DNA of 64,000 nt, taken from IMG/VR virus record IMGVR_UViG_3300044557_000292, positions 323,388 through 387,387 of that record; one strand, given 5' to 3'. The notes below the pieces were generated by a model. It saw only the letters and a program-made list of their open reading frames with translations. It was not told where the DNA came from and did no database searches. Below are positions 7,094 to 60,878 of the stretch, piece after piece. Numbering within the stretch: the stretch's first letter is position 1; each line of letters starts with the position of its first letter. This DNA is from a virus (lineage: Duplodnaviria > Heunggongvirae > Uroviricota > Caudoviricetes). Both the position numbers and the translations under genes were made by a program.

Positions 7094-7299
7094 ATTCTAC
7101 TTATTTCCATTCCGCATGTTAACAATAATAGTATCACCATAAAGCGTGTAAGACAATCTCAAAACTATTGACTACCGGCCTGAAGCGTATGATCATCTAG
7201 ACGCGCCGTGATAACTCGATGCCAGCATATGATCCCAATGGACCAGAAGATGAGTGCCTGAATCTACTGTTCGTAAAGCGTTGAGCCCATTGTAAGAAA

Positions 7300-7557: not shown

Positions 7558-7618
7558 AGCTTACGTTGCTCCTCGTGTGGTGGACACAATCATGTTTACA
7601 TGATGCATCTAACGCGCT

Positions 7619-7837
7619 GGATGAACCCCCGCAACGCGGGGAATACCTGTCACCTTGAATGCTACTCGAGATCGTAGCACCGCGGGGATGAACCCCGCCT
7701 AGGCGGGGAATACGGGTGAGACTGGAATCGTTGTGATTGCTGGAGGTGGGTTCAACCCCGCAACGCGGGGAATACAGTGGGCTATTGAATGGTAGTGCTC
7801 ACATCTGTTGGGTTCAACCCCGCAACGCGGGGAATAC
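7619..7837 (-). CRISPR. small degenerate CRISPR array (4 repeats, 3 spacers); trailer side of the locus
   Basis: Repeats gatgaacccccgcaacgcggggaatac, gatgaaccccgcctaggcggggaatac and 2x ggttcaaccccgcaacgcggggaatac, with 33-35-nt spacers; the reverse complement GTATTCCCCGCGTTGCGGGGTTGAACC matches the type I-E repeat architecture. Confidence 0.8.
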
Positions 7838-7908
7838 GGCCTGTTCCACGGTCTTGTCAACATCTGTTGACATCATGATAGAGCTCATACTAAACGGTTA
7901 CGAGACGG

Positions 7909-8583
7909 TTACGGAGCGGTGCAATACTCCGTGTCTATGCTCGACAGCAGGGAGGCGTTCCTCGCGGTGAACGTCTTGGACATGGACACGACGCTGGATC
8001 TATTGGATCCACCCGAACGTGATCCGACGCTGACGTTGATCTTAAGATCATCGAAGAACCCGGACACGGTGCCTACAGTGCCACCATAGAAGACCCCGCT
8101 ACCAGCGTCAACGGAGCCACTGGAATCATCCGAGGACGAGACCATAGACGTGAGGATGATCTTACCCTCATCATAGTCCGAGTCCTTCGAGGCGTCCTTG
8201 GATCTACGGATCATCCTCATCGTCCCATTGGAACCATCACCGATGGAACCATCAGGATCCTTCACGACGGTCAGCGCCACACACCTGCCGACAGTGTCGG
8301 CACTTGTGGCGCTAGCGGAATCCGCCGACTCACTGGGAATCGCCATCACCACAGTCTGGTCACCATCAGAATCGGTGGTGATCCTGAACCCAGCCGCGGA
8401 TCTTGCGTCTCTCCCCACCATCTGCATGGCTGTACTCACCTGCGACGTCGCCTGTGATCTTATGGTGGCGGAGTAGTTCGCTCTCATCAGCTGGATGGCG
8501 CTGAGAGAGAAGAACGCCATGAAGATCGCCATCGCCACAAGAAGCTCCACGAGGGACGCACCATGCTCGCCCCTATGGATCAT
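7909..8583 (-). CDS. type IV pilin-like / pseudopilin protein (class III prepilin signal)
   Basis: N-terminus MIHRGEHG|ASLVELLVAMAIFMAFFSLSAIQLMRANYS has Gly at -1, Glu at +5 and a hydrophobic helix typical of prepilin-peptidase substrates. The tracked ORF extends to 8727, but the ATG at 8583 is the likely start. Confidence 0.6.
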   Translation of the reverse strand: MIHRGEHGASLVELLVAMAIFMAFFSLSAIQLMRANYSATIRSQATSQVSTAMQMVGRDARSAAGFRITTDSDGDQTVVMAIPSESADSASATSADTVGRCVALTVVKDPDGSIGDGSNGTMRMIRRSKDASKDSDYDEGKIILTSMVSSSDDSSGSVDAGSGVFYGGTVGTVSGFFDDLKINVSVGSRSGGSNRSSVVSMSKTFTARNASLLSSIDTEYCTAP

Positions 8584-8774
8584 GCCCACACCATTGCCTA
8601 CATGTCTGTCCACATTATTGTCTACACCGGTGTCTGCACCCATTCGAGCATGTCCGAGCGTCCGTCCATACGCATATGTCCTCATCTTAATCTTCATCCT
8701 ATTCCCCCGTGGATCTAGTGGCGTCAACGAGCATCGAAGTCGTATAGTAGCTTATGGTATCACCACGCGAGACG

Positions 8775-10105
8775 GGTTCAACCCCGCAACGCGGGGAATA
8801 CCATCACTGGAGCCATCACTGGAGCAATCACAGTCAGGTTCAACCCCGCAACGCGGGGAATACGCTGCCGCATTACTGACTTCACGACCGTGAACCAGGG
8901 TTCAACCCCGCAACGCGGGGAATACCACACCGTTTGCAGCGAAGCTGCCTACCGAATCTAGGTTCAACCCCGCAACGCGGGGAATACGGAACGCTCTCTC
9001 TTTACTCTCAAGACCCGTCGAAGGGTTCAACCCCGCAACGCGGGGAATACTGATCTTCGTCTTTCCGGACTCAGTTTTGGTCAGAGGTTCAACCCCGCAA
9101 CGCGGGGAATACGCATTGATCGTTCTTATTGCGTTGAGAATGATACAGGTTCAACCCCGCAACGCGGGGAATACTTGAAGCCGGAGCCGGCTCACAGGAA
9201 ACGAAGCCAGGTTCAACCCCGCAACGCGGGGAATACTTGAAGCCGGAGCCGGCTCACAGGAAACGAAGCCAGGTTCAACCCCGCAACGCGGGGAATACAG
9301 ACGGCGGGCTAATCCATGAGCCGGGTAAGCGCAGGTTCAACCCCGCAACGCGGGGAATACCAAGCGCTATAATCTGTATGATGCGAAGCATACTAAGGTT
9401 CAACCCCGCAACGCGGGGAATACGTCTGTCGCACGTTGTTCTGAGATGAAATCTCCAGGGTTCAACCCCGCAACGCGGGGAATACTTTGCGATCTAATTC
9501 GTCCGCTTCGTTTGTAGAAAGGTTCAACCCCGCAACGCGGGGAATACTTGTTTCAATAGGATTGGCTCAGATTCAACTATAAGGTTCAACCCCGCAACGC
9601 GGGGAATACTCGAATCAGAAGAGGAGATTGCTGAGATGGCAGAAGGTTCAACCCCGCAACGCGGGGAATACCTGCACACGAAGCCTGATCCAATACCACG
9701 CGTAGGGGTTCAACCCCGCAACGCGGGGAATACTGATTATTTTTGTCTTTCTGTTTAGTTATAATATAGGTTCAACCCCGCAACGCGGGGAATACCACGC
9801 CTGCGATCTGCCACACGGGCTAGCACTGAGGGTTCAACCCCGCAACGCGGGGAATACCCATTGAATTTCGACTTTCTTCAGATCGAGTCTAGGGTTCAAC
9901 CCCGCAACGCGGGGAATACTTCAGTGCGCTTGGGTACTAGCACAGGACGGTGAGGGTTCAACCCCGCAACGCGGGGAATACAGTTCATGTTCTTCGATGA
10001 TGAGTAGCCGAAGATGGGTTCAACCCCGCAACGCGGGGAATACGTCTAGTTGGTCAACGTTGTTCGTTGCTACTACAAGGTTCAACCCCGCAACGCGGGG
10101 AATAC
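8775..10105 (-). CRISPR. CRISPR array, type I-E-like repeat, 22 repeats and 21 spacers (period 62)
   Basis: Perfect repeats ggttcaaccccgcaacgcggggaatac, equivalent to GTATTCCCCGCGTTGCGGGGTTGAACC on the minus strand, with a stem CCCCGC/GCGGGG like I-E. Spacers are 34-35 nt; two adjacent spacers (9177-9210 and 9239-9272) are identical; degenerate repeats lie at the low-coordinate end, so transcription is from the minus strand. Confidence 0.95.
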
Positions 10106-10218
10106 GCCTAGGAACGTTGAGACCACGTTAACGATGGTCGAGTACCACCACGATTCTCGTTAACGTAGATCAACATTCCGAACCCTCGAAAGAACCTCTA
10201 TTGGAATCATCACAGTTG
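10106..10218 (-). promoter_or_regulatory. putative CRISPR leader
   Basis: Non-coding sequence immediately 5' (on the minus strand) of the first perfect repeat; inferred from the orientation of the I-E-like repeat. Confidence 0.35.
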
Positions 10219-10704
10219 CTAGAAACCGTTATTCTTGGTTGGACCCGCTGCCGCTATCGAGCATCCTCGTTCACGGCGACCCTGATTCCTAGCAGGGGTA
10301 TGACCGTCGCCTCTCGGACGACGGGAGCGAACCGTCTGTAACACGGTGCTCAACCCGAATCTGTTGTTCTTGTGAAGCTTCCCCAGTCCGCGGAGTGCTA
10401 TGATATAGCCCGCAGCGTCATCCTTGTCACCCGTGTACCCGCACGTGTCGCATGTGAAGGAGTGGGTCCTAGGATCCGTGTCTTCGCAACCGGAGTGATC
10501 TTACCCTCCATCACGTACCGCCTTAGCGTGGAGTCCACCACCACAGGATAGTCGGCCGCTTCCTTGGGCCTGCACATTCCGTTCCTCATGTTGTAAATAT
10601 ATTACGGTAGTAACGCCAATGACACGAAAGCAGGTATCTAATGAATACAATATTAAGATATCAAGCATCAGTACAACCACATGATAAGATATCAGGAGGC
10701 ACAT
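10219..10704 (-). pseudogene. decayed TnpB/Cas12-like C-terminal fragment (zinc finger plus RuvC-III motif)
   Basis: Minus-strand frame reads ...RLSCGGGLHAKAVRDGG*DHSGCEDTDPRTHSFTCDTCGYTGDKDDAAGYIIALRGLGKLHK..., matching the TnpB/Cas12 C-terminal pattern CxxCG...D(A/K)DxNAAxNI..RG. It is interrupted by a stop and has no start codon; tracked ORFs 10398..10589 and 10501..10704 are pieces of it. Confidence 0.45.
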
Positions 10705-10740
10705 GTGGGACTCACGTCAGGGTCACGAGCCCGCCGCGTC

Positions 10741-11486: not shown

Positions 11487-13979
11487 CTATTCCCCGATAA
11501 GATCGAGGATAGCGTCAGAATCATCGGGATGGATCACCCTGACATCATCGCCCCCATCCTTGTCCACAGGAATCGTGAGCAGTGACAGCGCCTTGTCAAC
11601 AGTCATTGGCCTTGAGTAGATAGAGTTCTTGGCAATGGTTGCGAACACCGGCTCATTGCCGTCAACACGATTCAACGAGATGTTAGAACCAGCATCCACA
11701 TCAACCCAGGTGACCTCACCAGTAAGCAGGTCAAGAATGAACGGGGTAGAATTCGTGGACTCCCTCGTGAGACTCCACTTCAAAGCCACGTTCTTTGGAT
11801 CGAAGATCTCACCAGTCTGCTGGCCTAGTTCCGTCTTCAACATGACGCCAGCGCAAGCCTCGGGGATCTTGCTGAAGTGCTGCGCTGTGAATGAGTACAC
11901 GGATGGAATCATATACCTAACCTCAAGCGTATCGAGAGCGTATCTGACATTCACGTCAATGAACTCAGCAGCCCCGTCAGGAGCACTCGTAATGTCCCCA
12001 GAGTGGACAATACCTCTGCCCTCTCGAAGGTTCGTGTAAGATACCTGCCTACTATTCTTGAACCCCTCATCAAAGAACACGGTGCTCATGTCAAGATCAA
12101 CTCTGGAACCGTATTCTTGACTGTTAAGATCATGCCAGTGCATGAAGACACGGACAACAGGCTGTTCACCCCATCCTGGAATCTTGAACCTTGAGCCACG
12201 CCCAATGAGCTTCACGCCAGAACTTACCGACCCAACGCCCATGGGTACAACGTACCGTCCATCTGGAGAGGCAGACACGTCGAGGAACGTCTTCACGTTC
12301 TTACGCTTGTCCTTAAGAGCGGACTCGATGCCATTCATGATGAAACGGGCTTCATCAACCGTCACGTCGTTAACAATCGTGTTGTCAATGCTTGACGTCT
12401 TCTGTCCGTGAGGAGTCCTCATGATGACCATACGCTTGTCAAGATCATTGATACCATCTGACAGTCTCGTGTTCAAGAAACCCCAGAGCTGGATGAGGAC
12501 CCGGTTGCTCACATTCCTGGCCACACTATTGAACGCGGTGAGCACGATCCCATGATACTCCTCGGGGAGCTTGCGGAGCAACTCGACGAGACGACGGGCG
12601 AACACGCCAGGCCTACTCTTCAATTGTCCAACGATCTCATTGACGAGACGAGGATGATCGACCCCGTCTGATTCCTCCCGCAGATCACGAATCAAACCGT
12701 CAACGATCCCATCAAGAGATCTCGTGCCACCAGACTGCACCAAAGCCAGCCACGATCGTGCTGAATCCAATTCTGGGCTATGAGGCAGAACATTGCGAAC
12801 AAGCTCCTGGTAGTGAAGAGTAGTCGCAAGGCGCTTCCATTCCTCCTCGTAACGATGGAACTCGTCTGACAACTGGTCCTCATTAGGATTCTTCTTGAGG
12901 ATACGACCAAGCTCGAATAGGATGAGCTTCCTCTTCGACCTGTTTAGCTTGAACTTCACTGGTGCTGATAGGGAGGCGTCACCATCAGAAGACCAGAATG
13001 CGGCCAGTCTGAGCACATCAGTCACGCTATCGAGAAGATCCTCGTCAACATACTTTGAAACCTCGCCATGATTCCACGTCACGCATGGAAGAACAACGTT
13101 TAGATCAGATCCGTCCAACTCTCTGAGCAATGCGTACAGGAAGACGGCGTTCTCGTGGATCTTAGGCCATTCCGTGATGACTCCGACCGTTTCATCAAGG
13201 TGGAGTAGGGAGAACACGCCCCTGATGAACCACTTCTGATCATCAGACCACACCTGTGATGAAGATACCACATTCTTGAGAACATCAAGGACATCGTTCC
13301 TACTGATGATCCTAATAGCTGTCGGCTTTAACCCGTCAATGAGATGAATCCTAGGTGATGGAGTGTAATCATGCATGATGCGGACACCGATCCAATCACC
13401 GAGGTAATGCAGGAAGGCATTCCAGATTAGCTCTTCATCCGATGCTTCCGCCACCTGTTCTGGGAAGTCCGGGTACATTGGACGATAATCGTAAGCCGTT
13501 CCGCGCGATTCCTTAAGCACATCAAGAACAGAAGACAGCGTGCCGGCCGAAACACTGCCCAGGCGCTCGACGAGATCATCATAACCTACACCCGATTGAG
13601 AGCTGCCTGTGATCGCGTAGTTAAGAGATAAAGCATTAGCAATGAATGCAAGAACAGCGTGCGTTGAAGCGCCTTCAAGATCATCAATTGGGTACAGGAA
13701 TATCTCGTTATGATTAACGGTAAGGTACTCGTTCACCGCATTGAGGTTAGCCTTGTCCAGCCCACGCTTAAGTTCATGAATTCCACCATAGTTAACGGTA
13801 CTAGCATTATCGATCTGATTCTGGGGATCATTAATGTTATCATCACGCTTATCCTTAAGCGCTTTCAGACCACTTGCCGTTCCCCCTGTGGCCTTATTGA
13901 GCTCATCCAGGCCATCAAGACTGTCATCAGGACCGTGATCGTGGTTTCCAGTGAACTCATCCTTGCTTGCTACTCTCAT
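11487..13979 (-). CDS. large protein (830 aa) with C-terminal TerD-like domain
   Basis: C-terminal segment SRVDLDMSTVFFDEGFKNSRQVSYTNLREGRGIVHSGDITSAPDGAAEFIDVNVRYALDTLEVRYMIPSVYSF matches the TerD/CABP pattern (LDLDas...fyn.l...g.v.HsGDn.tG..gddE.i.vdL...ivf.v.iy). Confidence 0.55.
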   Translation of the reverse strand: MRVASKDEFTGNHDHGPDDSLDGLDELNKATGGTASGLKALKDKRDDNINDPQNQIDNASTVNYGGIHELKRGLDKANLNAVNEYLTVNHNEIFLYPIDDLEGASTHAVLAFIANALSLNYAITGSSQSGVGYDDLVERLGSVSAGTLSSVLDVLKESRGTAYDYRPMYPDFPEQVAEASDEELIWNAFLHYLGDWIGVRIMHDYTPSPRIHLIDGLKPTAIRIISRNDVLDVLKNVVSSSQVWSDDQKWFIRGVFSLLHLDETVGVITEWPKIHENAVFLYALLRELDGSDLNVVLPCVTWNHGEVSKYVDEDLLDSVTDVLRLAAFWSSDGDASLSAPVKFKLNRSKRKLILFELGRILKKNPNEDQLSDEFHRYEEEWKRLATTLHYQELVRNVLPHSPELDSARSWLALVQSGGTRSLDGIVDGLIRDLREESDGVDHPRLVNEIVGQLKSRPGVFARRLVELLRKLPEEYHGIVLTAFNSVARNVSNRVLIQLWGFLNTRLSDGINDLDKRMVIMRTPHGQKTSSIDNTIVNDVTVDEARFIMNGIESALKDKRKNVKTFLDVSASPDGRYVVPMGVGSVSSGVKLIGRGSRFKIPGWGEQPVVRVFMHWHDLNSQEYGSRVDLDMSTVFFDEGFKNSRQVSYTNLREGRGIVHSGDITSAPDGAAEFIDVNVRYALDTLEVRYMIPSVYSFTAQHFSKIPEACAGVMLKTELGQQTGEIFDPKNVALKWSLTRESTNSTPFILDLLTGEVTWVDVDAGSNISLNRVDGNEPVFATIAKNSIYSRPMTVDKALSLLTIPVDKDGGDDVRVIHPDDSDAILDLIGE

Positions 13980-14065
13980 TCAGTGTCTCCGTTCTGTAAT
14001 CTTGCATATAAAAAGGGTGAACCGTGACAAGCGATCCACCCTAATTACCGTACAAAGCATTGAGT

Positions 14066-14240
14066 GATTGGAAAGCACGCGGGCATGATTTTCATTTACT
14101 ATGAAGTGGATAGAAGAACTCCCACGTATGGCCAATCATTCAATTACATGCGGTAACTCGTTGTGGAAAGCGATGGAGCAATTTTTTAATCAGAAAAGTT
14201 AGAAGAACTCTCCATCATGGCCGCAATTCGTTACATTAAA
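14066..14240. repeat. tandem duplication of an ~88-bp unit in the intergenic region
   Basis: ttggaaagc..tagaagaactcccacgtatggccaatcattcaattacatgcgg followed by tgtggaaagc..tagaagaactctccatcatggccgcaattcgttacatt; lies upstream of the start of the 11487..13979 gene. Confidence 0.5.
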
Positions 14241-14293
14241 TATTATATCACGGTTCTATCATCATGCAACCTAGTGATCAATTCTCTTGATTC

Positions 14294-15556
14294 TTATCGT
14301 ACAGTATCCAGGATCTTTACAGCCCTAGCATTAAAGTCCACGCTTCCAATAAAGTAATCATATGCTCGCTCCCTGAACTGGTCATAATAATCATCGCTTG
14401 ACAAGAGCGCACGGTACTTCTCCGAGAAGTCATCCCACTGGGAGTCATCAGCCCATAGCGAATCATCATCAGTTGACGGCAATGCTAGCATACCGAACTC
14501 GGATAAATCGCGATCAGGCATGAGGGTGCCCCTGTACATGGATGGAACGGCTAGTACGGTGCCATTCTGGATGATTTCCAGTGTGACGTATTCTGGTAAA
14601 AGATTCATTTTTGGATCTAGGAATGACGTGTACATGCCTACGAAAGACTCACTGATGAGGCGTTCTCCCACTTTGGGATCATATAGTCCATAAATCTGGG
14701 CCTTATCCTCCAAGGTGTTGGAGAAATGGATGTCAGTCTTATTCTTCTTATGATACTCGAGGAATGGCTTGAAGACTTTTGGCTTGAGGCTTACCGTGAG
14801 TTTTGATACCGTGCCTATACTAGGCATGAGGCCATTCATACAGAGGTTAATGTCAATATGATGGTTAGCGCATCTCTGCTTGAAATCTAGCCATTGAATC
14901 CATCCCTTCCATGCCGGCGTTCTTCCCTGCCAGTAGAATTGCATTCTATACTTATCTTCCGGGGATCGCCAGTTCTTCCTGCTCTTGTCGAACAGGGTGT
15001 TATGCTGCATGTAATGGACCTTGTTGAGGAATTCCTTACTTTCCGTTCCATTGAGACTAGAATTGATGACCTTAACGATCTCGTCCCCGGTACCGAAGGT
15101 GATGAAGCTATCCAAATGTTTGAAGATACTGTTATCAAGCTTGACTCCAAGCTTCTCTGACTGCGCTATCCTGTGGCCAACATTAATATAGATCAGCTTA
15201 CCGTTATTCTTCTTGTCAAGGATAAGATCTGTCTGCCGTCTTATGGGCTTCATGGCCTCTAGTTTATACGAGTCGTCCCCCTTATTCCAATTCTTAAGGG
15301 TGGGCCAGTTAAGGTTAAAGATCACGGTCATCTCTGCTTGACGGAAATGGAAGTCTTCATCCATGAGGTCAAAGAACGCATCATTACTCCTCGGTTCTTC
15401 CTTCCTCGACATGCCCTTGGAAAACGTGTTCGTGTTCAAATAGACCTTCACGTCATAACCCAGACTCGCGATGATGGACTCAAAGTTCCGTAAAGCGTTG
15501 TCTAGTCCTCCATACGTGTTTCCAATCATGTTGATGATATTGATTCTTATCGCCAA
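14294..15556 (-). CDS. hypothetical protein (K/N-rich, lower GC)
   Basis: 420-aa ORF; local GC is clearly lower than the neighbouring genes. Confidence 0.5.
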   Translation of the reverse strand: MAIRINIINMIGNTYGGLDNALRNFESIIASLGYDVKVYLNTNTFSKGMSRKEEPRSNDAFFDLMDEDFHFRQAEMTVIFNLNWPTLKNWNKGDDSYKLEAMKPIRRQTDLILDKKNNGKLIYINVGHRIAQSEKLGVKLDNSIFKHLDSFITFGTGDEIVKVINSSLNGTESKEFLNKVHYMQHNTLFDKSRKNWRSPEDKYRMQFYWQGRTPAWKGWIQWLDFKQRCANHHIDINLCMNGLMPSIGTVSKLTVSLKPKVFKPFLEYHKKNKTDIHFSNTLEDKAQIYGLYDPKVGERLISESFVGMYTSFLDPKMNLLPEYVTLEIIQNGTVLAVPSMYRGTLMPDRDLSEFGMLALPSTDDDSLWADDSQWDDFSEKYRALLSSDDYYDQFRERAYDYFIGSVDFNARAVKILDTVR

Positions 15557-19749: not shown

Positions 19750-19770
19750 AAGTCAATAGTAACAATAAGG

Positions 19771-19860
19771 GGTGAACACCGCAACGCGGGGAATACTCTT
19801 GAATGATCTCCCGTCACCAAGTTTGAATACAGGTTCAGACCCGCCTACACGGGGTTCACC
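19771..19860. CRISPR. solitary degenerate CRISPR-like unit (2 diverged repeats, 1 spacer-length insert)
   Basis: ggtgaacaccgcaacgcggggaatac, then a 34-nt insert, then ggttcagacccgcctacacggggttcacc; sits exactly between the topA stop (19861) and the PNK start (19749). Confidence 0.6.
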
Positions 19861-20949
19861 CTAACGCTTCCTTGAAACCCTTCCAGATGCGGGCTTCCTC
19901 CTCGCAGGATGATCTTTCTGATAATCATCCCATATTTCCTTAGCCCGATCAGGAGACAGCGCCCTGGGATCTTCCCCATCTGGAAGCGATATGAATACAG
20001 CACGACCACGCGGAGCATTCTTATGACCCAGCCACGCCCCCCTCTTCCCTATTCCAGTGAAGAACCCGTCACCGAGCTGTCGTGGTAGCTTCACCTCTGA
20101 GAACATCTGCTCAGCATCTTGAAGGGTCACCGTGTCCTCAGTGAGACCACCGTCCTTGGGAAGCGTCATGTTCACGGGCTTAGCGCTCTTCACTGGTGAA
20201 CCATCCTTATGGATCCTCACGGCCTGCACGTAAGAGCCATACTTACCATTCCTAGCCGTCACCTGCCATCCAGCATACGGGCCGTCCTTCAGTATCCCCA
20301 GGACACGATTCACGGGCGATTTTGCCTCATCTAGTAGCTTCCTGCACGCGCCCGGCGTGAGGGCGTCTTCATCTGTTAGAACGGAATCATCCAGCTTCAC
20401 GCTCTTCACGTACCCAGAATCATTCTTCTCCCCCGAGGGGTCTTCAAGCCACGCGCCAGACCTGTTCACCCTGACCACGTACCCGCCGTTGAGATGAACC
20501 TCCGACAGCGTGTTGATCTCATTCCAGTCAATATTCCTAGCGAGACCATTCACCCTGCCATCAATGCCGTCAGGAGCCTTCCACACGCCATCAAGGAAGT
20601 CATCCCTTGATAGCGATCCGTCACCGATCTTATCAAGATCTTCCTCCATGGATGCGGTGAACCCGTAGTCAACGTACCCCGGAATCTTATCCTCAAGAAT
20701 CTGGGCGACCTTCATGCCCGTCCATGTCGGCGCCATCGCCCTTCCCTTCTTCTGCACGTACCCGCGCTTCTGATTCACGGTCACGAGGTTAGCATACGTT
20801 GACGGTCTACCAATACCAAGTTCTTCCAACTTGGCCACAAGTTGCGGCTCTGTGAACCTTGCCGGAGGTGTAGTCGTGTGCATGGTCGAGGATGCTGTTG
20901 ACAACTCACATTCCTCCCCAACCTTGAACTCATGCGTATTCCTTGCCAT
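19861..20949 (-). CDS. topA: DNA topoisomerase I, C-terminal portion (downstream of the in-frame TAA)
   Basis: TPPARFTEPQLVAKLEELGIGRPSTYANLVTVNQKRGYV matches the conserved topo IA domain III/IV region. Confidence 0.75.
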   Translation of the reverse strand: MARNTHEFKVGEECELSTASSTMHTTTPPARFTEPQLVAKLEELGIGRPSTYANLVTVNQKRGYVQKKGRAMAPTWTGMKVAQILEDKIPGYVDYGFTASMEEDLDKIGDGSLSRDDFLDGVWKAPDGIDGRVNGLARNIDWNEINTLSEVHLNGGYVVRVNRSGAWLEDPSGEKNDSGYVKSVKLDDSVLTDEDALTPGACRKLLDEAKSPVNRVLGILKDGPYAGWQVTARNGKYGSYVQAVRIHKDGSPVKSAKPVNMTLPKDGGLTEDTVTLQDAEQMFSEVKLPRQLGDGFFTGIGKRGAWLGHKNAPRGRAVFISLPDGEDPRALSPDRAKEIWDDYQKDHPARRKPASGRVSRKR

Positions 20950-20967: not shown

Positions 20968-22389
20968 TTATTCTTCACCGTCATCATACACGGACAGGAA
21001 TCCCCTGTCATCTATCCTCGTACTACTCGTCGTGAACACGGCCTTACCGTCACTAGATGTAATCGTGATCTTTCGCGTGATCCCCCTCGCAGGGTTCATC
21101 TGGCTAGCCACGGTCCTCCTGTACACGAGATCATAGACCTCACCAGCCTTAGCGTCATATGAGGAAGATGCCGTCAGCCCCCTGATCTTCGCTGGATCAT
21201 AGAATATTCCCGTTGATTCCTCTACAACAGGACGGATGCACTCGTGACCCTCCTGAGCATTCTTAGACTTCGACTTGTATATGATCGGCTTTGATGGCAT
21301 CTGTCCACCGTACTGTTTACGGATAATACTCCTCGCCGCCCTCACGGCCTCATCTGCCATCGCTGGGCTGTCCGTCCTTGAGTATGTTTGATACGTGTGC
21401 TCGAAGAGCTGCTGGGCTATACTCATAGCCCTGCTGGCCGTGAGCCCAAGCATGGATCCAACATTCTGCTGGTATGATGACGTGGTGTACGGGGTTGGAG
21501 GATTCCTCTTATAGGGCTTCTCCGTAATGTCAGTGATACTGTACTTTTTTGACTTCAGGTCTTTTAGGATCTTCTTCACATTATCATCACTGAGGGTGAG
21601 CTTATCTGAGGATCCATCCTTCAGCATGCCGTCAGGACCGTAATCAGATCCCGATGCTATTCTACTCCCATCGTACTCCACGAGGCTAGCCGTCAATTCG
21701 GCTTCCGTCCCCCTGTTAAAAACAGCCTCAATGGATCCATATGACGCCTTCACGAAGCCTAGGCGATCCTTCTCCCTGTTCACGACGAGGCGCAGGGTGG
21801 GTGACTGCGCCCTGCCTCCAGACGTCCCAGACCCTACCGTCTTCCAAAGGTATGGGGAGATACTGAACCCGAAGAGACGATCATAGACCTGCCGGGCCTC
21901 TGCCGACTCGGCCTTCCGCACGTCTATACTAGCATATGACTCCAGACCGGCAAGCACTGCCCGCTTCGTGATCTCATGCCAACTCGCCCTGCGGACATCC
22001 ATGCCAGACTTCTTGAGATCTGATTCTAGCGACTGCACGACCTCGTATCCAATGAGCTCTCCCGCCTCGTCCGGATCAGTACTCACATAGAAATGCTTCC
22101 ACCTGCCAGACCTGACCTCAGATCTGATCTCACCCCACTGCTTACGATTCTGAGGGTCATGATCTAGGAGACGCTCATAACGCCCACTCCGCACGTCGAT
22201 CGAGTAATCGCCGTACCGTTCACGCTCTTGACTAGTGCTCTTCTTCGGGTCCTTGAGCTCGAACATGAAACCCTTCGTGGCCATGATCTTCCACCCGCTG
22301 CCAAGGAACCCAGTGATCTCCCTGGCCTTGGTAGGCGACTCAACGATCATGAGGCCGCCGTCACGCTGAATGTCTTCTATGATTGCCAT
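20968..22389 (-). CDS. topA: DNA topoisomerase I, N-terminal portion (TOPRIM plus domain II), ends at an in-frame TAA
   Basis: LMIVESPTKAREITGFLG TOPRIM motif; the stop (TAA at 20968-20970) is in the same frame as the downstream ORF and separated from its ATG by 18 nt. Confidence 0.75.
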   Translation of the reverse strand: MAIIEDIQRDGGLMIVESPTKAREITGFLGSGWKIMATKGFMFELKDPKKSTSQERERYGDYSIDVRSGRYERLLDHDPQNRKQWGEIRSEVRSGRWKHFYVSTDPDEAGELIGYEVVQSLESDLKKSGMDVRRASWHEITKRAVLAGLESYASIDVRKAESAEARQVYDRLFGFSISPYLWKTVGSGTSGGRAQSPTLRLVVNREKDRLGFVKASYGSIEAVFNRGTEAELTASLVEYDGSRIASGSDYGPDGMLKDGSSDKLTLSDDNVKKILKDLKSKKYSITDITEKPYKRNPPTPYTTSSYQQNVGSMLGLTASRAMSIAQQLFEHTYQTYSRTDSPAMADEAVRAARSIIRKQYGGQMPSKPIIYKSKSKNAQEGHECIRPVVEESTGIFYDPAKIRGLTASSSYDAKAGEVYDLVYRRTVASQMNPARGITRKITITSSDGKAVFTTSSTRIDDRGFLSVYDDGEE

Positions 22390-31297: not shown

Positions 31298-32701
31298 TCA
31301 CTCACCAGTATCAGATGCAGTTTCCTTTTCCGTGGCCGTCGTGCCTGCAGGCGTGTCGGCAGTCGCGGCCCCATCAGGATCAGGATTCTGGTGCGCTAGC
31401 TCTCTCAGAGACTTCGCGAGATCAACACCGGTGAGCGTGTTCACCAGTGTTGGCAACTTGGCAGCAAGATCGGTTACGAGACTAGATGTCCGATCCTGCG
31501 CGTCTGTACCAACCGAGGTGATGGTAGCGCCCTCAAGAGGCTTGCTCAGGGATGCGGCAAGCTCAGGCAGCTTCTCGATGATGAGTGACTGCAGGGCAGC
31601 CTGACCATACTTACGATAGGCCTCCGCCTTCTTGTTCATAGCCTCGGCCTCTGCAAGACCCTGTGCCCTCACAGCGTCAGCCTTGGCCTCACCCTGCGCT
31701 CTAATCGCCTCGGCCTCAGCGACAGCTCGCGCCTTCGTTGCGGCAGCCTCAGCATCAGCATTCTGACGGGTGACCTCGGCCTGGGCCTCAGCATCAGTCT
31801 TCCTCTTGTACTTCTCAGCGTCAGCCTTCGTGTTCACGTCAGACTCAAGACGAACCCTCTGCAGCTTGACGTTCTCAGCTTCGGCGAGAGCCTCGGCCTC
31901 AGCAATCTTCTTATTCTGTGCCTGCTGTTCGAGACTCTTCACGGCCTCAGCGTTCACATCAGCCTTACCGATGTCAGCCTTAATGCTTGCCTGTTGTAGA
32001 GCGAGATCCTTCTGACTCAGAGCGATCTCTCGATCAGCGGCGATCTGCGCTTGCTGGGCTTCCTGCTTAGCATTCGCCTCAGCAATCGTGGCGGCCTTCT
32101 TCACAGACGCTTCCTGAGGAGCACCAAGAGCATCAATATAACCAGTCTGGTCATTGATCTCCTGAATCTGGAGCGTATCCAGGGACAGCCCCTGAATGGT
32201 GATAGAGTCAGCGACCTCATCACGGACAGCCTTCGTGAACTCAAGACGATCAGAGAGAAGACTCTCGACCGTCATCCCGCCTACGATAGACCTCATCGAT
32301 CCCTCAATGATTTCCTTCACGTACGGCTCCATGATCTGTTCCTGCCGAGAGAACCTCTGGGCTGCCAGGCGGATGTCCTCATCGGTGTTATTCACCTTGA
32401 AGGTTGTAACGACCTTGAGGTGGATCTTGATCTTCTCCTTAGAGATGGCATCGCATTCAGTACTGATCTGATGCGACTTGAGGGAGATGCTCACCACCCT
32501 GTTGATGAAAGGCCAGACGAATCCTCCACGATTCTGGAGAACCCTGACCGCTCTGTTCCCATTATCATCTTTACCATTTGATCCAGAGATGACGTAGGCC
32601 TCGTTGATGGTCGGCGTCTTATACCGGCTCACCAGGAACCATACTAGCAAGATGACGATCAGTATGATTGCTCCTGCGCCTATAGGGGTCGAATAATCCA
32701 T
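31298..32701 (-). CDS. flotillin-like SPFH/band-7 protein
   Basis: N-terminal TM, SPFH domain, then a long Ala/Glu/Gln/Lys coiled-coil repeat region (AEANAKQEAQQAQIAADRE...). Confidence 0.85.
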   Translation of the reverse strand: MDYSTPIGAGAIILIVILLVWFLVSRYKTPTINEAYVISGSNGKDDNGNRAVRVLQNRGGFVWPFINRVVSISLKSHQISTECDAISKEKIKIHLKVVTTFKVNNTDEDIRLAAQRFSRQEQIMEPYVKEIIEGSMRSIVGGMTVESLLSDRLEFTKAVRDEVADSITIQGLSLDTLQIQEINDQTGYIDALGAPQEASVKKAATIAEANAKQEAQQAQIAADREIALSQKDLALQQASIKADIGKADVNAEAVKSLEQQAQNKKIAEAEALAEAENVKLQRVRLESDVNTKADAEKYKRKTDAEAQAEVTRQNADAEAAATKARAVAEAEAIRAQGEAKADAVRAQGLAEAEAMNKKAEAYRKYGQAALQSLIIEKLPELAASLSKPLEGATITSVGTDAQDRTSSLVTDLAAKLPTLVNTLTGVDLAKSLRELAHQNPDPDGAATADTPAGTTATEKETASDTGE

Positions 32702-36786: not shown

Positions 36787-38097
36787 CTACTTGACTTCCG
36801 AATCCTCAGATCCATCTGACGGCAATGTCCTATCAACCTTACTCGACAGAGTGTTAATGAGATCAGTTCTGGTATCATCGAGGATCTTGGATTCCATGAG
36901 CGTCTTATTCAGAAGATCAAGTTGCTTCTGCATTCTCTCGGTGGCATCATGATTGAACTCTACAGAATTCTTCTCAGCATCCTTGAACGCCTGATGGGCC
37001 GAGATGATCGTGTTCAGGGTGGCTTGCATGTTCTCAACGTTATCATGGAGGCTCTCCTGGATCTTATTCACACTGTCCACAGAGTCCTTAAGATTCACCG
37101 CGTTATCCATGTTAAGATTGACGGCGGCCGCGTCTGCCGTGAGTACAGCCTTACGAGCCGTTTCCTGGACGTAGATTCCATGGGCGAGTTGAACGGCGGA
37201 CTTGAGACGGATGACCGCCGTGTTCTTCGTGCTCTTGACCTGCTCGATCATCTTCCAATGCGTCTTCGCGAGGAGGTCAATAGAAGCAATGTACGTGGTC
37301 TGACCGGCAGCGATGTTGATGAGATCAGATCGTCTGCGTTCTAGGGTGTTCAGTACCTCAGACTCAAGAGCTTCCTTAATCTCGGGATCAGCATTGAACT
37401 TGCCGCTTGATAATTCCGTCCTCAACTGTTCGATGATCTTACCAGCCAAGGACGCTTGTTGCGTGGCGGCCTCAACGCACTTCAACGCCCTGACGCGATC
37501 TTCCTTATATACCGCAATGTCACTCCTGAGCGAGAATTCATACTTGGTGAGCGTCTTCATGCAATCCTCAATGACTGCACCAGCCTTGCGGGTCTTATTG
37601 AAGAAGCTGCGCACTGGGTCATATACCGCTCGAAGGAGCTTGTTCTCCGGGCGATGGAGGATCTTCCTAGCATCAATGTCATTCATCGCGTTAGACATCT
37701 TGGTGAGCGTCTTGCCAATGTTCTTATTGGCTTCAGATCCCCTGCCAAGCTCTCCCATCGATATGTCAAACTGAGACTTGTTACTGATATCTGGGAGGAG
37801 ATCTTTAATAGCATCCTCACCGAAGTTCTCATACTTCTCGTGGAGATCATAGATCTTCGAGAATTTCTGTGAATCTTTAGCGTCATGCGACTTGATGACG
37901 TTGAAGGTATCACCAGAGATAAGACTTGAATCCATGAACTTCTTGTGCCCGGAGACAGCATTAGCAACAGCCTTCTTAGCAGCCTCAACATCATTCCTCG
38001 TATCTGACTCTAACTGCGGGGCTGCCGCGACCCCCGCCGAAATTGATCCATCATCCATACTAACCATTCTCCTTATAGCATCGTTATGATTGGCCAT
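36787..38097 (-). CDS. coiled-coil protein, possibly TelA-like (toxic anion resistance family), tentative
   Basis: 436 aa, all-helical composition; segment YENFGEDAIKDLLPDISNKSQ...MGELGRGSEANKNIG loosely resembles the TelA N-terminal FG...S..S...GE.G pattern. Confidence 0.35.
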   Translation of the reverse strand: MANHNDAIRRMVSMDDGSISAGVAAAPQLESDTRNDVEAAKKAVANAVSGHKKFMDSSLISGDTFNVIKSHDAKDSQKFSKIYDLHEKYENFGEDAIKDLLPDISNKSQFDISMGELGRGSEANKNIGKTLTKMSNAMNDIDARKILHRPENKLLRAVYDPVRSFFNKTRKAGAVIEDCMKTLTKYEFSLRSDIAVYKEDRVRALKCVEAATQQASLAGKIIEQLRTELSSGKFNADPEIKEALESEVLNTLERRRSDLINIAAGQTTYIASIDLLAKTHWKMIEQVKSTKNTAVIRLKSAVQLAHGIYVQETARKAVLTADAAAVNLNMDNAVNLKDSVDSVNKIQESLHDNVENMQATLNTIISAHQAFKDAEKNSVEFNHDATERMQKQLDLLNKTLMESKILDDTRTDLINTLSSKVDRTLPSDGSEDSEVK

Positions 38098-38165: not shown

Positions 38166-38801
38166 TCAGAATATCTGCCAGTAATGGATGAGTACAGCGA
38201 CGATAAGCGCAGCGAGAATGACGATGGCAGCGAGTAGCGATTCTAACCCGATCGTGAACTTGTACACCCCTGCATGATGCTCTGACTCCCCCAGAGCCCA
38301 CTGCCTCCACGTTCCGAATGCAAGCAGTACTGTCCCCAGATCCATGGTGAGGCACCACGGGCACATAGCACCAATCACGAATACTGACTGCTGGAGGAGC
38401 CATGTGGAGAAGATGAACGCAATGACCACGCCAATCCTGAACCCCCATTCCACCCATCGCGGGATGCTCACCCCGCTCGCGACCAGCACGCCTATCGTAA
38501 CGAAGACGGAGAACACGATGAGACCAAGGAACGCATTGGGAACTGCCCCGTTACCAGGCCAGTGAATCAGGGTAGACTGCCATGACTCTGCAACCGTTGA
38601 GCATGACAGTTTAGCATTCACGTCGCATGCGAAGATCGTTTTCGGGTTCAACGCCCTCCAATACGCTTCCAGTGATAGCATGAGAGATGCAAGCAGACCA
38701 AGAACTGATCCGATGGTAATTAACACTCCAGACCATATCTGGCTCGATCGTACCCTGAATATCCCGTTAATCATGTCTTCTTCCTGTTCTAGTAGATTCA
38801 A
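38166..38801 (-). CDS. VKOR (vitamin K epoxide reductase) family membrane oxidoreductase
   Basis: Loop Cys pair CDVNAKLSC, TM CxxC (MCPWC), about 5 TM helices. Confidence 0.6.
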   Translation of the reverse strand: MNLLEQEEDMINGIFRVRSSQIWSGVLITIGSVLGLLASLMLSLEAYWRALNPKTIFACDVNAKLSCSTVAESWQSTLIHWPGNGAVPNAFLGLIVFSVFVTIGVLVASGVSIPRWVEWGFRIGVVIAFIFSTWLLQQSVFVIGAMCPWCLTMDLGTVLLAFGTWRQWALGESEHHAGVYKFTIGLESLLAAIVILAALIVAVLIHYWQIF

Positions 38802-44215: not shown

Positions 44216-44809
44216 ATGTCAAACACATCATCTAGCCCGTTAGGACTCAATAAGAAGTCTTCAATCATCGGATCAATCGTGATTGTGGTCATCGTAGTCA
44301 TCATAGGATTCTTCCTGGCCGCCCAGGGCGCTAAGAACTCTGCCATCAAGCAGGAGAATCTCATTGATCGTGAACAGGCGAACGTTCAGACCATCGTGCA
44401 GAAGCGTGTTGACGCCCTCACCGAGATGATCAACACGGTCAAAGCGTCCTCAAAATTTGAGCAGGACACGCTCACCAAGCTGACCGACGCGCGGAGTAAG
44501 GCCGCCGAGGGCGACATCGAGGGCAGTGCTACCATCTTGAGGGCGACCGCGGAGGCGTACCCCGAGTTGAAGAGCATCGACCTGTACTCGCAGGTGAACC
44601 AGGAGACCGTGACTGTTGAGAATCAATTGTCTAATGAACGTCAGGCGTATAACACGTCTGTCCGTGACTATAAGAATAAGACGCAGACCTTCCCGAACAG
44701 CTCACTATTATCCATAGCCGGGTACACTCCCAAGGACTACAAGCTGTTCACAGCGTCGTCAAGCGCGCAGAGTTATGACCCGTCAACAAGTAATCTTTGG
44801 AATGACTGA
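44216..44809 (+). CDS. lemA: LemA family protein
   Basis: N-terminal TM plus LemA signature (...AYPELKS...QLSNERQAYNTSVRDYKNKTQTFPNS). Confidence 0.8.
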   Translation: MSNTSSSPLGLNKKSSIIGSIVIVVIVVIIGFFLAAQGAKNSAIKQENLIDREQANVQTIVQKRVDALTEMINTVKASSKFEQDTLTKLTDARSKAAEGDIEGSATILRATAEAYPELKSIDLYSQVNQETVTVENQLSNERQAYNTSVRDYKNKTQTFPNSSLLSIAGYTPKDYKLFTASSSAQSYDPSTSNLWND

Positions 44810-58986: not shown

Positions 58987-60330
58987 TCATACGATTGCCA
59001 CAACAATATTTGATATGAGGAAGAACAACCCGAACAGTATGATCGGGATGCCAAAGATAAGCTTCATGATTCTCCCCACGCTCTTATTAGCCTGCTTGTC
59101 CCATGCGTCAAGGAATATGGACAAGTTGGGCTCATGACTCTCATGACGTAGTGGACGCGCTGCCCGTAGAACATCATCAGCTGCATTAGACAAGAACTCG
59201 TGCAGCTCCTTATACTCATTCATCATGTTCTTATCATTGACTGTCGTGATGCCCGTCCTCGCGTATGATACGTAAACCTTCGACCCTATGAAGTGAACCA
59301 CACCACGGGCGTGTTCGAATCTTACAATCTCATCAAGCAGTGTTGGCGTTGCGGCCAGAAATCCTAGAGCGTCATCAGCCTCTTCCTCCGGAGTGTAAGC
59401 GTGGTTTTTCCTTGAGTTCGAGAATGCGTCAAGTTTGAGCTCCCTCGCACCTGGTATCTTCATACCATTTGATCCGAACGTGATCATAATATTCGGCACA
59501 GTATACGGCACGTTGAGCTCAGCGATGTTCACTGGCGCGCCACAGACCTCATTGATTCCTATTGGAACGTATCTTCCAGTCGTGTACCTATCATCGGGAC
59601 CGTTATCCCGGTGATGCGTGAGGATCTCTAGCTTCCTGACCTCACTTCCATCCCAACGGTACATTGGCAACGATGATCCATCCTCAGGGAGTCCACGGTC
59701 CCTATACCTGCCCTCATCAATCCTATCATTGATGTCCACGTCTCCATCCCATACCGGGATTGGTGTTCCCTCAAGAATTGCCCTCATGTACGTAGCACCA
59801 CTCTTCGCGTTATAGAAAATGTTCTTCTCGTCATTCAGCATAGATGGACGCCAGAGCGTGAGGTACTGGCGGATGTATGCATCCTCGCCCATATGGCCAT
59901 GAATCCTCCACGTCACTATGGATCTCTTCATGAGCGCGTTCTTCGGATTCACGTACATGTCCGTATCATTATCATCTGTACGCTCTGATGACTGGTAAGA
60001 GTAAGCTTTATTCTCACGAGCCCATGAGCTTATGACCTTATCCTGATCATTTATGACATTAGCAAGCTGCTCTACCGACCTCAGTGTCTCATCAACGGGG
60101 ATAATCTTGAATTCACCACGATCTAAAGCCGTATCAGATCTAGTAGCGCTATTCCTATGCTGACTATGATCTCTGACCACTTGTTCACTACTGCCCAATG
60201 CATCACTTGGAAGTGGGAGGGATCCGCGTCGCGTTGATTCATCTCCTGATGGTTGAGTGAAGAATGATTCCATCCTGTCATGATCTACTGGATCAGAGTG
60301 ATTGACCCCATGCGTTCTCCTGATGGCCAT
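58987..60330 (-). CDS. hypothetical protein with C-terminal TM anchor, co-encoded downstream of the second LemA
   Basis: 447 aa; C-terminal IMKLIFGIPIILFGLFFLISNIVVAIV. Confidence 0.45.
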   Translation of the reverse strand: MAIRRTHGVNHSDPVDHDRMESFFTQPSGDESTRRGSLPLPSDALGSSEQVVRDHSQHRNSATRSDTALDRGEFKIIPVDETLRSVEQLANVINDQDKVISSWARENKAYSYQSSERTDDNDTDMYVNPKNALMKRSIVTWRIHGHMGEDAYIRQYLTLWRPSMLNDEKNIFYNAKSGATYMRAILEGTPIPVWDGDVDINDRIDEGRYRDRGLPEDGSSLPMYRWDGSEVRKLEILTHHRDNGPDDRYTTGRYVPIGINEVCGAPVNIAELNVPYTVPNIMITFGSNGMKIPGARELKLDAFSNSRKNHAYTPEEEADDALGFLAATPTLLDEIVRFEHARGVVHFIGSKVYVSYARTGITTVNDKNMMNEYKELHEFLSNAADDVLRAARPLRHESHEPNLSIFLDAWDKQANKSVGRIMKLIFGIPIILFGLFFLISNIVVAIV

Positions 60331-60878
60331 TAGAAGTGGACCTCCACGTTCTTCCTATCTGACTCCTCGGCCTCGAAGAGCTGCCTGACGCCAATGTGAG
60401 CAGTATTGGCCACAATATTAGACGGTATGGTCTGGACGGCCGTGTTAAGATCGTTAGCGGCTGCATTGTAGAGCCGACGGGATGCTGAGATCTTATCCTC
60501 TGTGTCTGCAAGCTCTTCCTGCAGCTCTGTGAAACTCTCGGATGCCCTTAACTGCGGGTATGATTCTGCCACAGCAAGAAGTCTTCCAATCGCATGATCA
60601 CTCTCGGCAAGTGCTGTGGATTTGTCTTGAAGCGTATCAGCATGGAGGAGTGACGCCCTGGCATCAGTGACAGATTTGAATACGGTGGACTCGTGGGTCG
60701 CGTATCCCCTCACAGACTCGACTAGGTTTGGTATGAGATCAGCTCTCCGCTTGAGCTGGACATCTATTCCTGATTCGGCTTCTGCAGCATTGTTCTTGAG
60801 CACCTGGAGCTTGTTGAAGTAGTGAATGTATCCAATAATGAGAACAGCAATAATGACTAACGCGATTATAATGGCCAT
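60330..60878 (-). CDS. lemA: LemA family protein (second paralogue)
   Basis: N-terminal TM plus LemA signature (...SYPQLRASESFTELQEEL...RRLYNAAANDLNTAVQTIPSN). Confidence 0.8.
   Translation of the reverse strand: MAIIIALVIIAVLIIGYIHYFNKLQVLKNNAAEAESGIDVQLKRRADLIPNLVESVRGYATHESTVFKSVTDARASLLHADTLQDKSTALAESDHAIGRLLAVAESYPQLRASESFTELQEELADTEDKISASRRLYNAAANDLNTAVQTIPSNIVANTAHIGVRQLFEAEESDRKNVEVHF

Follow-up and report, generated by a model that had tools for sequence, protein, structure and literature searches.

Pilus subunits encoded by phages and CRISPR arrays carried by phages without cas genes are each already known, and these represent the closest described systems to the locus that we report here. 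The P-FimU proteins are versions of a Pseudomonas minor pilin that prophages encode; they are incorporated into the tip of the pilus, block phages that bind there and are set apart from the host protein by extra loops (Sztanko et al., PMC12952977). PilA-like genes have also been described in virulent phages (Cell Rep 2026, see PMC12952977). The cas-less arrays of huge phages are thought to draw on host Cas proteins against competing phages (Al-Shayeb et al. 2020, PMC7162821), mini-arrays borne by viruses have been described (Medvedeva et al. 2019, PMC6858448) and repeat-mediated recombination has been envisaged for virus-borne repeat units (PMC8616872). Amongst the bacterial arrays, the published repeat of the P. 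acnes subtype I-E system, GTATTCCCCGCCTATGCGGGGGTGAGCCC (PMC3316620), serves as a reference for the repeat described below.

We report the analysis of a window of 64,000 nt (the whole stretch of DNA analysed; positions 323,388 to 387,387 of IMG/VR record IMGVR_UViG_3300044557_000292) from a phage, in which a gene for a pilin-like protein lies between two blocks of CRISPR repeats. The original prediction for this DNA regarded a pilin as unexpected in a phage. That part of it gives way to the precedents of FimU in prophages and the PilA-like genes of virulent phages (PMC12952977), whereas the layout, with a gene in the slot of a spacer, is indeed unusual and we found no precedent in the literature searched for a non-transposon protein gene in a spacer slot between intact repeats. 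The best explanation overall, to which we assign a probability of roughly one half, is that a host-derived minor pilin, housed in an orphan I-E-like array, may act to exclude rival phages.

The repeat blocks and the gene between them

The features of the locus, all on the minus strand, are as follows.

7617..10740, minus strand: 3.1-kb strain-specific cassette of leader, 22 repeats, pilin gene and 4 repeats, delimited by comparison with a sister phage
10106..10740, minus strand: presumed leader, 635 nt upstream of the first repeat, cassette-specific
8774..10105, minus strand: main leader-proximal block, with 21 spacers (34-36 nt) between 22 perfect repeats
7838..8774, minus strand: 937-nt segment between two perfect repeats (oversized spacer slot), containing the pilin CDS
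7909..8583, minus strand: minor pilin CDS (GspJ/PilW class), 224 aa plus stop, with a predicted prepilin peptidase site at G8/A9, where '/' is the cleavage point
ATG 8697 (JGI) and TTG 8727 (maximal ORF), minus strand: alternative upstream starts of the pilin CDS
7619..7837, minus strand: 4-repeat, 3-spacer trailer block, representing the array's old end

The 27-nt core of the repeat reads GGTTCAACCCCGCAACGCGGGGAATAC on the plus strand, and the repeat reads GTATTCCCCGCGTTGCGGGGTTGAACC(Y) on the minus strand. Twenty-two perfect copies of the core lie at 8775-10105 with a period of 62-63 nt, and this main block includes one adjacent duplication of a spacer (9175-9209 is identical to 9237-9271). 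The trailer block has two perfect copies, at 7811 and 7749, and then two degenerate ones, at 7687 and 7620, which share a 3' tail, TTCATCC, that is unlike the main repeat type. The pilin gene occupies a gap of 937 nt that is bounded by perfect repeats (7811-7837 and 8775-8801), in agreement with the original prediction, which had placed the ORF between a degenerate 4-repeat trailer array and the main array. As judged from the sequence, the two repeat blocks read as one array that has been interrupted at a spacer position, since the repeats flanking the gene are perfect, degeneration is confined to the far end, and a second leader or a terminator is absent.

The minus-strand repeat aligns with the P. 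acnes subtype I-E repeat and is predicted to fold into a 5-nt flank, a 6-bp stem, a 3-nt loop and an 8-nt tail. The array thus has the attributes of a type I-E array, namely a repeat of 28-29 nt, a CCCCGC/GCGGGG hairpin, an 8-nt 3' handle and regular spacers; no Rfam family reached its gathering score. On the basis of this alignment and fold, and because the degenerate copies are found at the low-coordinate end, the crRNA strand is the minus strand, which is also that of the ORF. No terminator is predicted between the main array and the pilin gene or within 7838-8774, and the suggestion that read-through of the pre-crRNA would run into the gene stands with the shared strand. Within the presumed leader, a sigma-70-like site spans 10625-10596 and a small ORF of 59 aa occupies 10398-10577; the likeness by eye of its product to an excisionase-type HTH protein was dropped, finding no support in Pfam, NCBIfam or the PDB.

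Exact copies of the repeat were absent from IMG/VR, the GTDB representative genomes and the JGI metagenome collection, and for this reason a matching I-E system in the host is assumed. No Cas protein was found with Pfam among the ~58 ORFs of at least 120 aa in the window, and no cas operon adjoins the array. The spacers have no targets in the window, the fetched loci, the INPHARED phages or the PLSDB plasmids. Self-targeting or regulatory spacers were considered and rejected, as the window and the loci gave short chance matches only. The spacer at 9982-10016 shares a 13-nt match with the pilin gene (~0.015 such matches expected by chance), which lies outside the seed and was judged to be chance; the acidic-codon motif concerned is also seen at other places in the window.

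The same gene-repeat unit is present in five JGI assemblies (L001-L005) from different samples, with 99.9-100% identity throughout. Four Logan contigs (L006-L009) connect the pilin gene to the repeats on either side and a fifth, L030, shows the trailer repeats to be contiguous with the downstream phage genes. The agreement of these sequences excludes an artefact of assembly as the source of the gene-in-array unit.

The pilin product and its relatives

The minus-strand ORF at 7909-8727 encodes 272 aa when read from TTG, and the JGI gene call (P0001), named 'Tfp pilus assembly protein PilW', begins at ATG 8697 and gives 262 aa. Beginning at ATG 8583, the product has 224 aa and the N-terminus MIHRGEHG/ASLVELLVAMAIF (also written MIHRGEHG/ASLVELLVAMAIFMAFF). 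We favour this start, because the leaders of the bacterial homologs are 8-20 aa in length and because GC3 in the N-terminal extension (8584-8727) is 0.46, as against 0.70 in the body of the pilin. ATG 8583 is thus the most likely start on the sequence, although the Shine-Dalgarno-like GGGGGA that precedes ATG 8697, the sole such sequence among the candidate starts, speaks otherwise; the mature pilin is identical whichever of the two is used. In the 937-nt segment the pilin CDS has 191 nt upstream of it and 71 nt downstream, and the downstream stretch contains the palindrome TGTCAACATCTGTTGACA at 7855-7872. In 8584-8774 there was no trace of the pilin gene that lies upstream in the host.

In the long form of the product, Pfam N_methyl matches residues 52-73 with 20.9 bits (E 2.6e-4), just under the gathering score of 21.2. 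The best match in NCBIfam is gspJ (TIGR01711), which covers the N-terminal 70 residues only (E 2.9e-4) and scores 20.7 bits against an equivalog cut-off of 64.85, so that the protein is not GspJ of a type II secretion system (T2SS) proper; P0006 clears TIGR02532 (17.7 vs 16.3). Taken with a family of full-length homologs at E values of 2e-26 to 1e-3, the N_methyl match places the pilin assignment beyond chance. A Pfam search had been called for as a check on the assignment, and its N_methyl match favours it.

The class III signal, MIHRGEHG/ASLVE, is present, with G8 as Gly(-1) and E13 as Glu(+5). These two residues and seven other positions are invariant in an alignment, A1, of eight sequences (the phage copy and seven bacterial homologs), such that all nine are kept in the phage copy, as is a Cys pair typical of the pilin disulfide that is conserved in the family. 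The original prediction had named a generic transmembrane helix without the Gly(-1)/Glu(+5) site as the finding that would overturn it; with both residues present and invariant in A1, the N-terminus is not of that kind, and its description of the product as prepilin-like is borne out also by the predicted GspJ-type fold. The AF2 model (pLDDT 71, pTM 0.67) consists of a helix spanning residues 11-62 and a beta-sheet of 8 strands. Its long alpha-1 helix lies on the antiparallel sheet and the predicted globular domain has the fold of a GspJ-type minor pilin. Residues 112-119 and 151-162 of the model form extra loops of low confidence, which may not be specific to the phage as loops vary among the bacterial homologs too. 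Helix alpha-1 of the phage pilin carries a 3-residue deletion that is found in none of the seven bacterial homologs. No match to the product was obtained among PHROG, the PDB sequences or the BFVD folds. We conclude with high confidence that the gene product is a type IV pilus (T4P) minor pilin with a GspJ/PilW-type fold; it is classified as GspJ-like for its fold and, from the context of its homologs, as a T4P minor pilin, and not as T2SS GspJ.

An exhaustive search of 1.8 billion representative proteins returned 11 full-length homologs at E<=1e-3, headed by P0003 (47% identity, E 2e-26) and P0002 (34%). Nearly all proteins matched by the A1 profile carry PF07963, and these include proteins that are named PulJ/GspJ family in Cellulomonas and type II secretion system protein in Actinotalea. 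The bacterial homologs lie in complete T4P clusters, which encode two T2SSE ATPases (one with MshEN), a PilV/GspI-like pilin and GspH/G-like pilins, along with PilC, the prepilin peptidase (Peptidase_A24), PilM and PilO. At four of these loci (L010, L011, L014 and L017) the homolog belongs to a minor-pilin operon and adjoins a PilV/GspI-like gene. The phage gene is solitary, with neither a minor-pilin operon nor a PilV/GspI-like neighbour, and none of the machinery of the pilus (Peptidase_A24, PilB, PilC, PilM, PilO) was found among the ~58 ORFs scanned in the window.

The neighbours of the closest homolog (L011) fall into 90%-identity clusters with proteins of Bifidobacterium minimum, and those of L014 and L017 cluster at >=90% with proteins of Bifidobacteriaceae MAGs; the host of the phage is probably a member of the Bifidobacteriaceae. 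At 0.70, the GC3 of the pilin gene is higher than in any of the 21 phage ORFs for which it was determined (0.57 +/- 0.05, maximum 0.65), and it is below the 0.77-0.87 of three of the four homolog genes that were examined from bacteria. Such a composition fits a gene that was captured from a high-GC host and then partly ameliorated. No relatives of the pilin were found in IMG/VR or GTDB, the JGI metagenome collection gave N-terminal look-alikes only and tblastn against INPHARED gave chance matches only, such that, among the collections searched, the gene is found in this phage lineage alone.

The cassette, its possible role and the alternatives

P0001 is recorded on a contig of 419,707 bp. Nearly all genes of the window lie on one strand; PHROG matches include RIIA, RIIB and an alpha-glucosyltransferase, and IF3, a CCA/poly(A) polymerase, a clamp loader, topoisomerase I, a ribonucleotide reductase with NrdI and an RNA ligase/kinase are also encoded. 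From its sequence, the window looks like part of a huge phage (contig of about 420 kb) of virulent type.

A sister phage, L024, has 98% nucleotide identity to this phage on both flanks of the cassette site. Homology ends at the stop codon of a 235-aa gene (10741) and restarts right after the last degenerate repeat (7617), and L024 has, at this site, a 1,041-nt segment (13605-14645) with a CHAP-domain gene. In a distant relative, L025 (a 349.7-kb contig, its proteins 50% identical), the genes are arranged as [837 aa][330 aa][CHAP][86 aa] and, because this gene order is the same, the CHAP gene represents the older state. It had been suggested that relatives be compared for an uninterrupted array at this position. 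None was seen: L024 and L025 have no array at all there, and it is the whole unit that replaces the CHAP-domain gene. Leader, array, pilin gene and trailer therefore appear, from these alignments, to have come in, or to be exchanged, as a whole, at what appears to be an accessory-gene hotspot that differs between 98%-identical strains. A separate, degenerate two-repeat mini-array at 19770-19861 of the same phage has a counterpart that is retained in L024. BLAST with the whole cassette gave no match among phages and, among plasmids, only a 66%-identical unannotated stretch of an Edwardsiella plasmid that overlaps the repeat-spacer region of the query.

Candidate routes for the entry of the 937-nt segment are repeat-mediated recombination, illegitimate insertion into a spacer or integrase-mediated capture. 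More speculatively, the segment may have entered at the leader end as an oversized prespacer, via the Cas1-Cas2 integrase, before the 21 newer spacers were acquired.

In the mechanism that we propose, minus-strand transcription of the cassette would begin in the leader and/or result from read-through of the upstream phage genes, and it is somewhat probable that the pilin is co-transcribed with the array. Host Cas6e would cut the repeats to give crRNAs that arm the host Cascade against competing mobile elements and, since the two flanking repeats are perfect copies, the same cutting would excise the pilin mRNA from between them. The host prepilin peptidase would cleave the prepilin at G/A, and the mature pilin would replace the host subunit in the priming or tip complex of the pilus. 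There it would alter the surface of the tip or poison assembly, such that pilus-dependent rival phages could not adsorb (superinfection exclusion), and array and pilin would be the two arms of one phage-versus-phage module. That the exclusion of pilus-dependent phages is the function for which the pilin was selected is a tentative proposal, which we hold at slightly less than even odds. The 3-residue deletion in alpha-1 could equally make the phage pilin an assembly poison. We think it doubtful, though worth stating, that the array is a platform for expression or RNA maturation, in which the pilin mRNA is an oversized pre-crRNA 'spacer' excised by host Cas6e. Such an mRNA would have UUGAACCY as its 5' handle and a repeat hairpin at its 3' end, and the output of pilin would then depend on the presence and activity of the host type I-E system.

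The gene might instead be a passenger, a neutral and recent capture of host DNA by illegitimate or repeat-mediated recombination, in which case its position would be meaningless and its protein useless to the phage. The GC3 of the pilin gene still stands well above that of the phage genes, no strong promoter or Shine-Dalgarno sequence precedes the likeliest start, the gene is confined to this phage lineage and sister strains manage without the entire cassette, all of which fit a neutral capture. Yet the ORF is intact and, though it has diverged by 53% from its nearest homolog, has kept the Cys pair and all nine invariant positions, its GC3 has moved phage-ward relative to three of four bacterial homolog genes, which suggests long residence, and its sequence is identical in at least nine contigs from different samples; we consider a neutral capture unlikely. 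A functional pilin could also serve another purpose, by shutting down or remodelling the host pilus so that DNA uptake, motility or adhesion ceases in the course of infection, or by keeping newly released virions of the same phage from being wasted on infected cells. The evidence for the identity of the pilin bears on this proposal just as it does on exclusion, and the deletion in alpha-1 fits a dominant-negative subunit as well as a mimic, such that the data do not separate the outcomes; the linkage to an array points to conflict between elements, though by association only, and on balance we hold such a purpose to be quite improbable.

Cas operons are often located between two arrays, and the pilin gene might likewise merely lie between two independent arrays, the 4-repeat block having a promoter of its own. 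The mini-array at 19770-19861 shows that small stand-alone repeat units do occur in this genome, and the TTCATCC tail shared by the degenerate repeats is distinct from the main type. The last repeat of the main block is, however, perfect rather than degenerate, both gene-adjacent repeats are identical to the main consensus and the whole unit is gained or lost together in the comparison with the sister strain. The 300 nt upstream of the 4-repeat block, a stretch that is mostly pilin coding sequence, show no leader-like similarity (a score of 20 vs 17.7 +/- 2.1 for shuffles), and a second leader before this block was rejected for its unlikeness to the main one. Two separate arrays are accordingly a decidedly improbable arrangement. 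Hardly any weight is left for the view that the protein is not a pilin but a generic membrane helix, or that the locus is a chimeric assembly across CRISPR repeats: the N_methyl match falls just under the gathering score and matches to PDB sequences, PHROG and BFVD are absent, but the homolog family, the conserved residues and the agreement of multiple assemblies have already largely refuted it. Several points weigh against the preferred explanation, that the cassette excludes rival phages. P-FimU acts from prophages while this phage looks virulent, the nearest bacterial homolog is only 47% identical to the phage pilin, the N_methyl match is 0.3 bits short of the gathering score and the repeat had no exact copy in the three collections scanned. 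The spacers, too, gave no target in the window, the loci, INPHARED or PLSDB, so that the anti-competitor role of the array is a presumed one.

Should the exclusion of rival phages prove correct, the replacement of a pilus-tip subunit as a strategy against such phages, so far a matter of Pseudomonas prophages, would extend to a huge phage of virulent type, as well as to the Bifidobacteriaceae, a Gram-positive lineage of the gut or rumen, and to another class of minor pilin. Receptor-level exclusion and CRISPR targeting would be combined in one mobile 3-kb module. Furthermore, a natural mRNA flanked by CRISPR repeats would make the Cas6-type maturation or regulation of a protein-coding transcript testable.

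Comparison with the known systems

The P-FimU proteins of the F10-like phages of P. aeruginosa and the pilin described here are each a single, phage-borne T4P minor (tip) pilin with extra loops, and the present protein, too, is phage-encoded and homologous to a structural subunit of host pili. P-FimU has diverged from the version of its host, and the present pilin is 47% identical to its nearest bacterial homolog. The two differ in class, P-FimU being FimU/GspH-like and the present pilin GspJ/PilW-like, in carrier, which for P-FimU is a temperate siphophage (prophage) and here is an apparently virulent phage of ~420 kb, and in host, Pseudomonas in the one case and a presumed Gram-positive actinobacterium in the other. 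In addition, the present pilin has the 3-residue deletion in alpha-1 and its gene lies inside a CRISPR array. With the solved structures of the GspJ/XcpW/EpsJ pseudopilins and the PilW-type minor pilins it shares 7-13% identity and, unlike GspJ of the T2SS, its homologs come from monoderm T4P clusters.

The array, like the cas-less arrays of huge phages and other viruses, is an orphan with the repeat of a recognisable host-type system, in this case I-E. It differs from those of the huge phages in size, with 26 repeats as compared to a median of six (PMC7162821), and in having a protein-coding gene in the position of a spacer. In comparison to the actinobacterial I-E arrays, it has the tail TTGAACC, spacers of 34-36 nt and no cas operon in the 64-kb window, and the loop of its repeat is 3 nt rather than the 4 nt of P. 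acnes. With the P. acnes I-E array (PMC3316620) it shares the 5' end of the repeat, GTATTCCCCGC, the CCCCGC/GCGGGG stem and the 8-nt 3' tail, and the periods of the two are similar at about 61-62 nt. What is new with respect to all of these systems is the class of the pilin, the presumed host lineage and the type of phage, together with the packaging of a pilin gene and an array as one strain-variable cassette.

The cassette site and its borders

The position occupied in the window phage by the array-pilin cassette is a hotspot at which the sister phage (L024) and a more distant relative (L025) instead carry a gene for a CHAP-domain, peptidoglycan hydrolase-like protein with an N-terminal hydrophobic segment. 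The corresponding intervals are:

Window 7617-10740, minus strand: array-pilin cassette
L024 13605-14645: CHAP-domain gene
L025 13634-14416: CHAP-domain gene

The gene adjoining the hotspot differs by an indel of approximately 356 nt, and encodes 235 amino acids in the window phage and 353 in L024. Window position 7178 is where all five cassette-bearing JGI contigs end, and one of the five starts exactly at the junction of the leader and first repeat (10106), which together suggest that strain variants co-exist at the cassette borders, possibly including the leader end of the array.

Within the array, the adjacent spacers at 9175-9209 and 9237-9271 are identical, and represent the tandem duplication of one repeat-spacer unit. 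A further element is found downstream of the pilin stop codon, ahead of the next repeat:

7855-7872: perfect 18-nt palindrome, TGTCAACATCTGTTGACA

This palindrome contains two TTGACA hexamers. Because no T-run follows, it is a candidate operator or RNA hairpin.

Membrane-stress-type genes and a VKOR homolog elsewhere in the window

38166-38801: vitamin K epoxide reductase (VKOR) homolog
31298-32701, 36787-38097, 44216-44809, 60330-60878 and 11487-13979: membrane-stress-type genes and the gene for an 830-aa protein

VKOR is a disulfide-forming enzyme, the substitute for DsbB in the Actinobacteria, and the homolog encoded here is possibly relevant to the pilin because the latter retains a conserved cysteine pair. 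Another feature, unusual in a phage, is the window's cluster of genes of the membrane-stress type: SPFH/flotillin, TelA and two LemA. Relatives of the 830-aa protein include a TerD-family protein and proteins of Actinomyces oris.

A split topoisomerase and a separate mini-array

Topoisomerase I is encoded in two adjacent ORFs (19861-20949 and 20968-22389), one with Toprim and Topoisom_bac positions 2-288 and the other with Topoisom_bac positions 298-410 and a C-terminal repeat; the sister strain shares this split. The gap of approximately 110 nt between the topoisomerase C-terminal ORF and an AAA_33 kinase ORF is occupied by a mini-array:

19770-19861, minus strand: degenerate mini-array comprising a pair of I-E-like repeats with a single 35-nt spacer
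L024 4148-4210: its counterpart in the sister strain

Conservation of the mini-array extends to the sister strain, from which the main array is absent. The 3' tail of the mini-array, TTCACCC, is similar to the TTCATCC of the main array's two degenerate terminal repeats rather than to the active type. A role for the mini-array as a Racr/solitary-repeat or crRNA-like regulatory RNA is conceivable.
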